DNA of 64,000 bases from Vermamoeba vermiformis (taxonomy: Eukaryota). The notes beneath the pieces are model-generated. The model made no database searches. It was not told the DNA's origin and worked only from the letters and a program-made list of their open reading frames with translations. The stretch lies in assembly GCA_045837725.1 (NCBI GenBank), contig JBEWZL010000263.1:1-64000 (forward strand), read 5' to 3'. This document shows, piece after piece, positions 29,103 through 35,734 of this stretch; the first letter of the stretch is position 1; each line of letters begins with the position of its first letter. A program made the translations under genes and the position numbers.

Positions 29103-32100
29103 ATGAACACCAAGCTGGAGTTGACGATCAAAAATACAGAGCAGCGATGTAAATTAACTGATTTAGATATCAATGTAAATATCACTGGATTTTTAAGCAA
29201 GACGTCGGTTACAATGACGTTCTTGAACGAAACTGACTTGGATTCTGAAGGAGAGGTAACCTTAACATAATTGAACAATATTTTTAGCGAGTATTAACGT
29301 GTTATCATTAACAAACCAGCTCGTTTTTCCAATGCCAGAAGGTAAAATGAATATTCTAATTTTCAAATAATTTTAGTCTTGACTTACCTCGTCGAATCTA
29401 CGTAGGCGCTGCTATAAGCGGTTATGCCGTCGATATTAACGGAGAACTCGTTGATGGTGTCGTAGTCGAGGTACTTAGCAAGCTCATATTTGTTATTCTG
29501 CGTTCTGAACATTTTCCGTTGATAGAAAGAGAAAGCTCGGATCACGTTCGAAGCTGAAGCAAGAAGTGTTGAAAAACCATCTGCTTCAATTGTAGAGCAT
29601 GTAGTAGGCAACGTTTTTCGTACAAGAAGTAAGTTTTGATGCTTAAATACAGCAGATCTGATCGGTCTTTTCAGTTACTCCATTACCTAAAAAGGCAACG
29701 AGAATCATTCGGGTATCATACGTTGAAGAACTTACTCCGATCTCGAAATCTCAGCAAATCAAATCAGCAAACAAGAATCAAAGAGATGTGCAGTGGAAAC
29801 TGTCGCTCGAGAACATCGGACCTTTGAGCACACTTGCAATGAATGCGATCATCGCTGGCGGCGGGGCACCACGTGTTCGATTTGACGGTAATACTGTTGG
29901 CTCCATTAAACCACTGCCAGATGTTATTGGGCCTGTGGCATGGCGTTTTAAGTCCGAGAACTGCACCATCAAACAGTACGTGACGAATTATTTTTTGGCT
30001 CACAAGCGCATTATTAACACCACTGGACTTAGGGGCTTTGAAATAGACGTGCCTGGTGTAGCTTCACAGATAGTCGAAGTTGATGAAGACAAACAACAGT
30101 ACTTTGTGCTGAACGATGACTTCTCGTCAGGTACGCGTAGTTAGTAAGTGTCAATTGAGCTAACTCATGTTCAGAATTCAACTTCAACGAGTCTGTGATG
30201 CAAGCTGATCGTGTCGCACTCTTGTGGGACGCATCAAAGTCACGTGAAGTCCGCAACGAAAAAGACGTTCAATTGATCAAGACTTACGTGCAGAAGGTAA
30301 GAATGCGATTGTAACTGCTAGTAACATATCAACTAATATTACGATAGCTGTCGAACATCGTCATTGACTTGATCGTCTTCCGCGACACTTCTGAAGAGCT
30401 CGTGACATTCAAACTTGTCAACGGCAATGCTGCGCCATTAATCGAATATCTTAACAAGGTACGCACTAATAGTGACATCTAACCAAGGTATTCTAATAGT
30501 GTATGATAGATACCATACATTGGAGGCAGTAACTTGGGTCAATTGTCCATCACCAAGACAGTGCCCGTGCAAATCAAGGACGGTGAAGAGATTGTCATTA
30601 GAGACACGTACAACTATTACTTGATGTTCACTGACGGCTTGCACAACTTGTCTTTGAACTCCACGCCTGAGAAGCTTGAAGCCCCTGTGTACATTTTTTC
30701 TTCTTCGACACTCTCTGACGGCACCCTGTTGAAAGTGTGGGGTAAGTCACATTTGTATTATAAATCCTTGATATATACTTAATATATTCTCGCAGCACGT
30801 AAGAGCGGTGGTGAATACTTCGATCTGAACTCGACCTCGTCAAGCACGTCAGAGATTGTTTCCAAATTAGGCAATACCAAGTTCCAGTACTTGTTTGCCG
30901 AGATTGACGGTGCCGTTGTGAGCGAAATTTACCCGTCGTTGCCGAGTCCTATTCAAGGCAAACAGTTCACCATTGCTGGCAAGATCAACGGTCAAAATCC
31001 CGCGACAATTGCTTTGGTAAGAAAAATTGATAGTTTTAAGCCTTATTAACATCGTGCTCGTATAGAATTATGGTTACGGAACACTTGTCACTCGGCGAAT
31101 GAAGTTCCAAATCAATCCTGCTAGTGCGCTGAAAAACAACTTGGCTGCAAGGTACTGGGCTCAAAAGAAGATTGACGAGCTTCAATTGTTCCCTGAAGTC
31201 GCTGAAAATGAGGCCAAGATATTGAGCGTAAGACTAACTCATTGAGCCAAAATCAACTTTGACACGCTCTAACAGCCCTATTTTTAGATCGGTCAACAAT
31301 ACAACATTGTCACGCCAAATTCATCCTTGATTGTGCTTGAAAGCCTCGATCAATATGTCAAGTGTAAGTATAACTAAGAGTGTCTTAATAGCGTGTTAAT
31401 AATGAATTTTGGGCAGATGAAATTGAGCCGCCAAAGAGTTTGCCCGAAGTGCGCAAGAATTACTTGGAAATTATGAAGAACCGCAAGCAACAACAATTAG
31501 AGCGCGACAACGAGAAGATATTGTCAGTCGTGAGCTTTTGGCAACGCAGAGTGGCGTGGTGGAACGAAGACGTGACGTCACCTGAACACAGCGAGCCTCA
31601 GATCCAACATCACTTTCAGTTTGGATTTTTCAAACCTGACGTGCTTCAAGTGGCCCCTAAAGATGTGATTGATCTCAAACAAGCTGATTTGAACGACGCA
31701 CTGCGGCAAAAGATCGTTGAAGATGAGGAAGAAGAGAACAGAAAAGCAATTGAAAAGCAACAACAAATTGAAATGCCTCATCTTGAAGAAGTTGTGCAAG
31801 AACAAGAGATGATTGCCGCGAGAGATAACGAGATCAGATTGATCGAGCAGGACGTGAAAGAACTCAACGAGATGTTCAGGGACATTAACCAACTCGTGCT
31901 CGAACAGGGCTCATTGATCGACCAAATTGAATCCAACATAGATAACTCCGCTATTGACTTGGGCTACGATAAATTTGCAGCCCCACCACCGCCAGAAGAA
32001 GCAACATGGGGCTTTGATGAGGACCTTGATATCCCGCACTCGCACGAAGAGTTCGCTTATGCAGATCCATTCGCGGACTTGACGACTGCTGCCGCTGCTG

Positions 32101-35100: not shown

Positions 35101-35734
35101 TACAAGCAGGTCATCGTCAAGAAATGGGACGTGCGTTGGTGTCAAGTCGAGTTGACGGCCTTGTCTGAAATGAGCCGACTCGCTCACTTTGTGCAGTGGA
35201 TGGGACTCGATCAGTCATCGATGGTAAGCCTACAAAGACTATATTACTATCATAATAGTACTTACGATGCCGGCATTTAGGTGAATATTGACCGTCGCTT
35301 GGTTCAGTCCATTATGGATTTGGACTTGCACGTGATGATTCGCTGGGATACTGATCTGACCGACGCAGAAATAGTCGTCACGTAAGTCGATAGTCACCAT
35401 TTTTATACATAGGACTAATATGTTTCGCAGTGAGCCATCAGGTGAAGTGTGCAATAGCTTCCATAACAAGACAAAGACTGGAATGCTCTCGCGAAATTTC
35501 ACGTGCGGCTATGGACCGCAAGAGTATTGCGTCAGAACAGCGCAGCCAGGACGCTACAGAATTGAAGTACGCTTGTTCGGAGCCCCGCCCGCCGCTCCGC
35601 CAACCACTGTGACGGTCCGTGTTACGACTGACTGGGGCAGACCGGTGACGCAAGTGGAAGAGTACCACGTTATTCGATTGAATAAGGTCAAAGAGGCCGT
35701 GCATGTGATGGACGTGAACTTTAAAGAGTTGTAA
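29103..35734 (+). CDS. VIT-vWA-[Qa, Qb-like and R SNARE motifs + hydrophobic helix]-TPR-DUF2135 multidomain protein (about 23 exons)
   Basis: VIT: [41 protein letters not shown]. vWA: LLWDASKS, MFTDGL, ARKSGG, followed by YWAQKKI and IVTPNSSLIVLE. SNARE motifs at about 31800-31960, 33200-33400 and 33545-33745. TPR-like/DUF2135 C-terminus: LRPDEPQSYTDL, IRWDTDLTD, EPSGE, FTCGYGPQEY. The exon junctions from 31363 to 34590 were checked for phase. Confidence 0.88.
32826..32874 (+). other. GC-AG intron
   Basis: AG|GCAAGT donor, CTAAT branch point and TCTCAG acceptor. Phase-2 splicing joins ...HSSK-R-DLSTT... in frame. Confidence 0.75.

Follow-up and report, generated by a model that had tools for sequence, protein, structure and literature searches.

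SNARE complexes are bundles of four helices that come from separate proteins, save in the two-motif SNAP-25 group. Here we describe a Vermamoeba vermiformis gene whose single product carries a syntaxin-type Qa motif, a second Q motif, a synaptobrevin-type R motif and a membrane anchor within a VIT-vWA scaffold. It lies on contig JBEWZL010000263.1, in a stretch of 64,000 nucleotides (nt) that we call the window; all gene coordinates are positions in this window. A natural chain of Qa, Q and R motifs on an R-type anchor in an unrelated scaffold breaks the rule that SNARE helices are supplied by separate proteins. No protein of this architecture was found in the literature searched (SNARE or synaptobrevin combined with VIT or VWA, and multi-motif SNAREs), in agreement with the initial annotation of the window, and the combination of a VIT-vWA scaffold with Qa, Q, R and anchor on one natural chain is new to that literature. 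A search for DUF2135, the domain at the C terminus of the protein, returned no paper under that name. The main text of a fungal SNARE inventory (PMC2639358) contains nothing similar; its supplements, which lay outside the comparison, might list such proteins.

The closest described SNAREs each share one property with the window protein. SNAP-25, Sec9, SNAP-29 and SNAP-47 likewise have more than one motif per chain; a flexible linker, some tens of residues long, connects the motifs and lets them pack in parallel in cis. They combine Qb with Qc, whereas the window protein combines Qa, Q(b) and R with an R-type anchor and is missing Qc. We know of no SNAP-25-type Qbc SNARE with an R motif, a transmembrane helix or a large non-SNARE scaffold; in the window protein the motif after the Qb-like one is R and a membrane helix is present, which sets it apart from the Qbc type. 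Tomosyn, Sro7 and amisyn likewise mount an R-type helix on a large unrelated scaffold, and through non-fusogenic complexes they are thought to regulate fusion, not to drive it. Theirs is a WD40 or other scaffold with one motif and no transmembrane helix, whereas the window protein has a membrane span and carries three motifs in a VIT-vWA scaffold. Engineered single-chain t-SNAREs likewise hold several SNARE helices in one polypeptide that assembles intramolecularly; one is the subject of a JCB paper of 2006 with the title 'An intramolecular t-SNARE complex functions in vivo' (PMC2063558). Such chains are man-made, with three Q helices and the R helix in trans, whereas the window protein is natural, includes R and lacks Qc. 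A structure named 'sc-t-SNARE' (PDB 9y5f) is the top match of our Qa profile (E 2.7e-16).

The N-terminal half of the protein is homologous to ITIH1/ITIH4, PARP4 and VWA5A/Dictyostelium Vwa1, all of which are without SNARE motifs, membrane helix or TPR-DUF2135 module. Cytoplasmic VIT-vWA proteins exist in amoebae (PMC10539598); that paper, on Dictyostelium Vwa1, makes no mention of SNARE or TPR. Both ends of the window protein match an unnamed VIT ... TPR-DUF2135 family, in which the insert replaces a variable linker. Typical members have a signal-like N terminus and a short linker, whereas the window protein has no such segment and ~730 extra residues. SNARE-like helices outside the canonical families are also found in the effectors with which Legionella and Chlamydia interfere with host fusion. 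In those pathogen proteins the coiled coils are loosely SNARE-like, whereas the window motifs score as true Qa and R members in an intron-bearing eukaryotic gene.

One spliced gene encodes the three SNARE motifs

The gene and its splice structure are as follows.

29103..35734, forward strand: whole gene, 23 exons, 1801 amino acids (aa), backed by an open frame, splice signals, splice joints in relatives and a colinear orthologue, P0161
29103-29255, 29320-29341, 29406-29470, 29526-29628, 29675-29975, 30033-30130, 30175-30296, 30348-30458, forward strand: exons 1-8
30510-30741, 30796-31016, 31066-31227, 31288-31363, 31417-32421, 32483-32654, 32703-32825, 32875-33746, forward strand: exons 9-16
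33805-34140, 34191-34334, 34411-34514, 34590-34828, 34884-35223, 35281-35381, 35431-35734, forward strand: exons 17-23
32826-32874, forward strand: GC-AG intron, donor GCAAGT, between exon 32703-32825 and exon 32875-33746, which carries the second Q and R motifs
29976-30032, forward strand: probable in-frame 57-nt intron (GTACGT ... TTAG); exactly these 19 residues are absent from the mRNA-type orthologue

The exon chain was assembled by hand from the sequence and then checked by script. The spliced model has its ATG at 29103, its stop codon at 35732-35734 and no internal stop, and the introns are very short (44-76 nt), as befits a eukaryotic-type gene. A blind search for GT-AG paths gave 76 open paths and no discrimination among them; transcript evidence was used instead. 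A chain of GT-AG introns alone breaks between 32825 and 32875 because the linking intron is GC-AG, and the reading frame closes across this interval only with that intron. Its use is supported by a joint from 32826 to 32887, with 8 letters between, in a spliced contig of run X2. If the intron is left unspliced, the frame continues through a short hydrophobic stretch and stops at 32896-32898; gene callers could be misled by this and end the gene too early.

Our first model had 22 exons and 1820 aa, again free of stops, and 19 residues in exon 5 went beyond the full-length orthologue. Since these residues are missing from the orthologue and are bounded by splice signals, 29976-30032 is probably a further intron, and its removal gives the 23 exons and 1801 aa of the final model; if retained, the intron would add 19 aa without an in-frame stop. 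An intron of a relative that matches 32422-32482 is also free of in-frame stops, and the relative's protein P0155 is an open reading frame (ORF) call that reads through it. The phase-compatible exons of the initial annotation thus do join in a single open frame, with the amendments that one linking intron is GC-AG and that 29976-30032 is a further likely intron.

Two kinds of transcript evidence were available. Contig sets X1 and X2, whose type could only be presumed, proved spliced, with 90-99% similarity to the window. The two RNA-Seq runs, X11 and X13, bear the same species label, and their reads are 90-99% alike to the window, mostly 90-95%. Relatives' contigs or reads support 20 of the 22 introns, a count that rests on the 15 of 28 joints listed. 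Thirteen are listed GT..AG joints; four are joints with a few diverged letters between, among them the GC-AG intron and the intron that separates the R motif from the membrane helix; three are loose ends whose letters match the adjoining exon and which we counted by our own reading. Introns 29976-30032 and 32422-32482 have no direct joint among the joints listed. A single 1.5-kb contig spans 33817 to 35701 across six introns, and RNA-Seq reads give the joints 34331>34408, 34826>34882 and 35381>35431. Reads cover the VIT part, 31340-31807 and 33914-35785; the lack of coverage at 31808-33913 fits an insert that is divergent between relatives. All nine indels that distinguish the window from the X1/X2 contigs preserve the frame (seven are multiples of 3, and the others are one +1/-1 pair 4 nt apart). 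The proline/alanine-rich linker (33098; 32131-32929) shows in-frame indels of 3 and 24 nt against close-relative contigs.

Full-length orthologues complete the picture. With exon 34885-35223 as query we recovered P0004 (693 aa on a 2419-nt contig, with Pfam Synaptobrevin and DUF2135), whose cluster holds P0161, P0162 and P0164, each of 1785 aa, on contigs of 5505, 5500 and 5470 nt. The window gene with its introns needs 6632 nt, so these contigs are spliced messages. P0161 begins with the same residues as the model and is colinear with it to the end; its Pfam matches are VIT (86.6 bits), Synaptobrevin (66.7), SNARE (30.1), VIT_2 (29.1), DUF2135 (26.0) and V-SNARE_C (16.8). The Qa motif lies within the same exon as a conserved family segment, and the second Q and R motifs lie together in another exon. 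The open 23-exon frame, the relatives' splice joints and the colinear 1785-aa orthologues bear out the initial annotation in its central claim of one polypeptide with Qa, Qb-like and R motifs. The locus is one real, spliced, protein-coding eukaryotic gene with a chimeric product.

The SNARE cassette

The cassette consists of the Qa motif, a disordered linker of ~370 aa, a Qb-leaning Q motif, a linker of ~59 aa, the R motif, a basic stretch and one transmembrane helix, in this order.

31833..31961, forward strand: Qa (syntaxin-type) motif, layers -7 to +5, zero-layer Q at 31905-31907
33176..33196, forward strand: short motif ERFRTIS, directly ahead of the second Q motif, with E, R, F, R, I and S invariant; also in P0096, P0084 and L002
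33221..33379, forward strand: second Q-SNARE motif (Qb-leaning), layers -7 to +8 complete, zero-layer Q at 33293-33295
33497..33514, forward strand: short motif PTIGFN between the second Q and R motifs; invariant in the alignment, with variants in P0063, P0096 and P0084
33554..33712, forward strand: R-SNARE (synaptobrevin-type) motif, layers -7 to +8, zero-layer R at 33626-33628
33810..33866, forward strand: single transmembrane helix, aa 1282-1300, Kyte-Doolittle 2.81, separated from the R motif by intron 33747-33804

The zero-layer codons (CAG at 31905, CAG at 33293 and CGT at 33626) are all in frame and stand where the initial annotation had placed them. For the layers, the usual 16-layer heptad spacing was applied to aligned orthologues.

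The R motif is the most canonical of the three. It matches Pfam Synaptobrevin (PF00957) over 33551-33745 with 66 bits (E 2.7e-18) against a gathering threshold (GA) of 26.4, and with 63.1 bits when the whole ORF is used. All seven proteins or pieces that contain the motif (window, P0005, P0006, P0084, P0063, P0096 and P0161) score 63-83 bits. The nearest PDB entries are VAMP4 and VAMP2 (E 3e-8), along with Nyv1 and VAMP8. Its zero-layer arginine aligns with that of VAMP2 and VAMP4, the other 15 layers are without exception hydrophobic or small, and 10 of the 16 layer residues are identical to VAMP2. The transmembrane helix, which follows the basic stretch, is the sole segment of the protein above the Kyte-Doolittle threshold; basic residues are more numerous on its N-side than on its C-side, and it is kept in P0004, P0006, P0161 and L002.

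The Qa motif has a glutamine in its zero layer and is closest to Qa members. The motif itself finds syntaxin 7 in the PDB (E 1.7e-7), and a profile of six sequences finds syntaxin 1A (E ~1e-14) and syntaxin 7 (E 4e-13), with the Qc protein syntaxin 6 reaching only 0.014. In Pfam, no Syntaxin or SNARE model and no N-terminal Habc domain was matched at E up to 0.1 by the exon, nor any SNARE family at E up to 10 by a 67-aa segment. No hydrophobic segment follows the motif, which is thus not a complete motif with its own anchor. It is kept in the relatives P0155, P0156 and P0161.

The class of the second Q motif is less sharply drawn. A 67-aa segment passes the V-SNARE_C (PF12352) threshold, with 29.1 bits against a GA of 27.1; the whole exon gives 25.3 bits. 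The corresponding part of P0161 has 16.8 bits and prefers the generic Pfam SNARE model (30.1). A three-sequence profile has Vti1b as its best natural PDB match (1gl2_C, E 3.2e-5), with syntaxins 13 and 1A at 3e-4 on the C-terminal half and the Sec9 N-motif at 0.0037. The initial annotation had called this a Vti1/SNAP-25N-like motif; it is a Q-SNARE motif with Vti1b as nearest natural structure, and by these profiles it leans towards the Qb class. The search with SNARE hidden Markov models that the annotation had proposed therefore succeeded for Synaptobrevin and, on the segment, for V-SNARE_C, both above GA; for Qa there was no Pfam match, and the syntaxins came from PDB and profile searches. 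A fourth motif, of Qc type, was not found in the protein.

That the second Q motif might be a recent copy of the Qa motif was considered and rejected: hhalign aligns the two with a probability of 89% but at 12% identity. Positions 33380-33470, just after the second Q motif, read as a syntaxin-like juxtamembrane ending (..QA..QQKSSWF) and then a glycine-rich, weakly hydrophobic stretch. It has the appearance of a vestigial membrane helix, which would suggest that an entire Q-SNARE was captured at some point. The two short motifs, in the general forms ERFR(T/S)IS and PT(I/V)G(F/Y)N, recur in the two clades with SNAREs, though their order relative to the Q motif differs. The first fits a basophilic kinase site (RxRxxS), as we read it.

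For the exon that encodes the second Q and R motifs, an AlphaFold2 (AF2) model built on only three sequences consists of two 70-residue helices (predicted local distance difference test, pLDDT, ~90; predicted template modelling score 0.23). A predicted complex of Qa with the stretch carrying the second Q and R motifs, in which the alignments went unused and controls were not included, scored 0.18 and 0.06 against a mark of 0.34.

The cassette and the scaffold have changed at very different rates. Between the window protein and P0161, identity is 94% in the VIT-vWA part, 95% in the post-vWA segment and 93% in the C-terminal module; it is 42% in the Qa motif, 41% in the long linker (98 gap columns), 46% in the second Q motif, 48% in the R motif and 65% in the membrane helix. 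Within the motifs, layer positions fare better than the rest. In the R motif 10 of 16 layer positions are identical to P0161 against 15 of 43 non-layer positions, and in the second Q motif 11 of 16 against 10 of 43. Against a deeper clade of SNARE-bearing relatives (P0063, P0096 and P0084; see below), 11-13 of the 16 R-motif layers are identical. The zero-layer Q, Q and R and the core layers are kept in every relative examined (seven sequences for R, seven for Qa and four for the second Q). A metagenome scan for related genomic DNA yielded four loci, none of them from the closer relatives behind P0161 and P0155. Comparison with a third relative recovered there (genomic contigs L001 and L002) gave nonsynonymous divergence (dN) of 0.04-0.12 in the scaffold and 0.4-0.9 in the insert. 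The ratio to synonymous divergence (dN/dS) was 0.13-0.56, hence below 1, where it could be computed; synonymous sites are saturated (pS 0.56-0.84) and three regions are without dS, so that only the dN contrast is usable and we make no claim of positive selection. All three motifs and the helix are kept in this relative, in P0155 (91% identical in exon 12) and in P0006. Judged by these alignments, selection acts on the helix cores, whose layers are kept while the surfaces change fast. Because the core layers and the zero-layer Q/Q/R are kept while surfaces change, the motifs appear to be maintained for a SNARE-type coiled coil. Such conserved cores and fast surfaces in close species offer a handle for evolutionary and biochemical work.

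We favour, with about an even chance of being right, a membrane-anchored, non-fusogenic SNARE cassette with a regulatory or anchoring role, which would zip in cis and could take a free Qc. The ~1280 N-terminal residues with all three motifs would lie on the cytosolic side; the helix would span an endomembrane in the manner of a v-SNARE, and the C-terminal module would be luminal or outside. The single hydrophobic segment, with none at the N terminus, is consistent with this topology. As the motifs are tethered in cis on one anchor, an intramolecular QaQbR bundle, one Qc helix short of a full core, would be the likeliest arrangement. A cis complex on one anchor would not pull two membranes together, and because one anchor cannot bridge two membranes the role would be non-fusogenic, regulatory or anchoring. 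The cassette might hold the VIT-vWA scaffold on a membrane of endolysosomal type, and might bind or withhold a free Qc-SNARE. A three-quarter bundle that captures a Qc helix, which the initial annotation had offered as its second suggestion, would fit the conserved core layers. The protein would then be a natural test case for a cis-tethered, Qc-deficient bundle, whether as inhibitor, Qc trap, NSF-driven switch or bait.

Several observations tell against this reading. Layers +6 to +8 of the Qa motif are D, A and P in the window, and P0155 too is without hydrophobic residues at +6 to +8; Qa layers are not clearly better conserved against P0161 than its other positions (7/16 and 14/43). The motifs as wholes (42-48%) are conserved no better than disordered linkers (41%), and we know of no canonical SNAREs as poorly conserved as that. 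The AF2 model of the second Q and R exon holds no confident mutual arrangement of the two helices. The protein is not tail-anchored, with ~500 aa beyond the membrane helix; to our knowledge no tail-anchored SNARE has so much sequence after its helix. The fusion of the C-terminal module to cytosolic 14-3-3 and kinase domains without a membrane helix (see below) sits badly with a luminal module. Finally, the transcript evidence is all from relatives 90-99% alike and none from the window's own strain.

The VIT-vWA scaffold and its family

The remainder of the protein consists of the following parts.

29103..29722, forward strand: VIT domain, aa 1 to ~130, five exons; exon 1 has 20.3 bits for VIT and 19.3 bits for VIT_2; PARP4 VIT E 2.2e-7
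30175..31016, forward strand: vWA-like domain, with DASKS of the metal ion-dependent adhesion site (MIDAS) at 30228-30242; family profile matches ITIH4, PARP4 and ITIH1
31417..31680, forward strand: post-vWA family segment (EIEPP ... WWNED), in the same exon as the Qa motif; 95% identity to P0161
34083..35731, forward strand: C-terminal module (C-module), with a W-rich head, TPR-like helices and a beta-sandwich with DUF2135 (Pfam 35540-35662)

The N-terminal domain is a VIT domain by its profile matches. Exon 1 alone, at 20.3 bits, is under GA because the domain is divided among exons; in the orthologue P0161 it reaches 86.6 bits over residues 18-130. A profile of 30 typical family members finds ITIH4 (E 1.5e-21, profile positions 43-550), PARP4 (1.9e-14) and ITIH1 (4.6e-13) over VIT and vWA together. 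Across the alignment of these 30 members the MIDAS residues D, S, S, T and D show no variation or almost none. In the window protein DASKS, noticed already in the initial annotation, is present in frame along with the later D, and S stands at the MIDAS T position. Pfam VWA models had no match in the window ORFs or in P0161, and a scan with NCBIfam gave far sub-threshold VIT matches only.

The DUF2135 match has 29.9 bits against a GA of 22. The homologous C-module, modelled with AF2 from P0008 and 37 relatives (pLDDT 83), consists of TPR-like helices and a beta-sandwich. Foldseek detected the TPR part only, with matches to Pex5, MamA and CTPR. By VIA-align the sandwich resembles TerD at a moderate level (2qz7_B, Z 9.1, root-mean-square deviation 3.9 over 114 residues; 2kxt, Z 8.3). 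Atlas scores of 0.78-0.79 for the C-module serve as leads only. The DUF2135 sandwich has a conserved Asp-rich stretch, WDTD.TD, and TerD has a calcium-binding fold associated with tellurite resistance; on the strength of these two features of the model the C-module may bind metal.

A full HMMER scan with P0004 gave 3928 proteins at E up to 0.001, of which 150 were listed. Most of the matches listed are 950-1150 aa long and match only in their C-terminal 300 residues; a VIT ... DUF2135 arrangement was present in 9 of 9 full-length typical members scanned. The window protein matches the family profile with 769.8 bits in two parts, an N part over profile positions 41-681 and a C part over 662-1020. 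The VIT-vWA ... TPR-DUF2135 scaffold of bacterial look, with typical members of ~1000 aa, was correctly recognised in the initial annotation, as was the position of the insert in the variable linker of the family. The profile match splits around ~730 residues, which corrects the earlier length of ~850 aa. The post-vWA segment is supported by P0001, whose initial 50-60 residues align with ~100 family members, at ~540-640 in the numbering of the latter. The signal-like segment found at the N terminus of typical members is absent from the window protein. The family is apparently mostly bacterial, and metagenome contigs L003 and L004, which hold an uninterrupted 3078-nt match with 30% identity over P0161 residues 9-1775, are presumably intron-less typical members.

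More than 120 residues outside the profile were found in 15 of the 150 listed representatives. Three cluster representatives, P0063 (2218 aa), P0096 (2344 aa) and P0084 (1513 aa, cut at the N terminus), form the deeper SNARE clade. They have one Qa-type motif and a synaptobrevin motif (67.6-82.9 bits), and a block of ~400-500 aa with 6-11 hydrophobic segments separates the latter from the C-module. Zero-layer Q and R are thus present in further VIT ... C-module proteins, there with Qa and R only, and the C-modules of the two SNARE clades are only 36-38% identical. P0009 (1784 aa), which resembles a paralogue, has a long disordered insert without a SNARE motif.

The C-module also stands behind three other kinds of domain: 14-3-3 in P0015 and a kinase C-lobe in P0051, both of Arcella intermedia (the kinase fusion also occurs as a UniRef entry), and a ubiquitin-like domain in P0011 of Amoeba proteus. 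None of these proteins has a VIT-vWA half; some are only fragments, and the 14-3-3 and ubiquitin-like examples come from Trinity contigs only and are possibly chimeric. Other extra domains are Peptidase_M56 (P0133) and CarboxypepD_reg (P0056). Unless the transcript contigs are chimeric, the C-module would be mobile in amoebae. A mainly bacterial-looking VIT-vWA ... TPR-DUF2135 family has been taken up by eukaryotes, where trafficking and signalling domains have been combined with its linker and its C-module.

Alternative readings of the cassette and neighbouring genes

Because the R motif is so canonical, a serious if rather unlikely alternative is that the protein is a working v-SNARE with brakes. 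The R motif and anchor would act in trans, and the internal Q motifs would fold back and auto-inhibit in the way of a longin or Habc domain, until a luminal C-module or a cytosolic vWA domain senses cargo and frees the brake. The R motif is indeed the best-kept part of the cassette, with its uniform Synaptobrevin scores in all seven sequences and its VAMP2 residues at 10 of 16 layers; the basic stretch and membrane helix come directly after it, and the deep clade keeps Qa and R only. However, the surfaces for SM proteins, NSF and SNAP are not conserved, and beyond the helix lies a large extension, or in the deep clade a multi-pass block of 6-11 hydrophobic segments. We know of no fusogenic SNARE with either.

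The initial annotation preferred an integrated decoy, in which the scaffold would show copies of host trafficking targets to intracellular bacteria, whose SNARE-attacking effectors or proteases would bind or cut the cassette and then be reported or trapped by the vWA/MIDAS half or by the C-module. It drew on the statements that ITIH4 traps proteases through a bait region and that DUF2135 (YfaP) genes lie in bacterial alpha-2-macroglobulin operons. ITIH4 is the best PDB match of the family profile, and the insert changes 5-10 times faster than the scaffold (41-48% identity against 93-95%; dN 0.4-0.9 against 0.04-0.12). In amoebae the C-module is also joined to 14-3-3, protein kinase and ubiquitin-like domains, which are frequent effector targets. 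The expectation of the annotation that relatives would carry variable host-type domains thus holds in so far as these three and synaptobrevin are joined to the C-module, but the three fusions are without the VIT-vWA half, and the 14-3-3 and ubiquitin-like ones have the Trinity origin noted above. A decoy should moreover resemble its model, whereas the motif surfaces drift from canonical SNAREs and the best PDB matches reach only 34-37 bits, which weakens this reading. The dN/dS values below 1 where computable, at saturated synonymous sites, leave positive selection unsupported, and PADLOC, whose library holds anti-phage systems only, matched none of six proteins. We consider a decoy, for which the support is circumstantial, unlikely. 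Its broader form, in which the scaffold would be an amoeboid innate-immune sensor chassis whose integrated baits (SNARE, 14-3-3, kinase and ubiquitin-like) lure effectors at the vacuole membrane, is speculative and improbable.

Equally improbable, in our judgement, is a relic linker, in which captured SNARE genes would now serve as spacer and membrane anchor with no SNARE-type function. The overall identity of the motifs, which equals that of the disordered linkers, the Qa motif's loss of C-terminal layers and the SNARE-free disordered insert of P0009 would suit such a relic. It is disfavoured because the layers are conserved over deep divergence: no relative examined has lost the core layers or the zero-layer Q, Q and R, and profile scores remain high across clades with C-modules 36-38% identical. 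The indels, too, preserve the frame.

That neighbouring genes or a misassembly were taken for one gene is already largely refuted and very unlikely, because full-length intron-less orthologues exist and motifs share exons: the break of the GT-AG-only chain at 32825-32875 and the read-through stop at 32896-32898 would point to an artefact, and same-strain DNA reads were not part of the comparison, but the GC-AG intron seen in a spliced contig closes the break, the entire architecture is encoded on each of three full-length contigs without introns from a relative, the Qa motif shares its exon with a conserved family segment, and the second Q and R motifs are co-located in one exon. The cis-tethered cassette remains the reading that we prefer.

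Elsewhere in the 64-kb window no paralogue of the gene was found. The long ORFs at 897-1658, 21523-22716, 43916-45196, 47176-48033, 55172-55897 and 62800-63999 belong to ordinary eukaryotic genes, none of them a SNARE. Domains in the neighbouring ORFs include F-box-like, many leucine-rich repeats (among them a match to the ComC type), adaptin appendage, C2 and HAM1_N.

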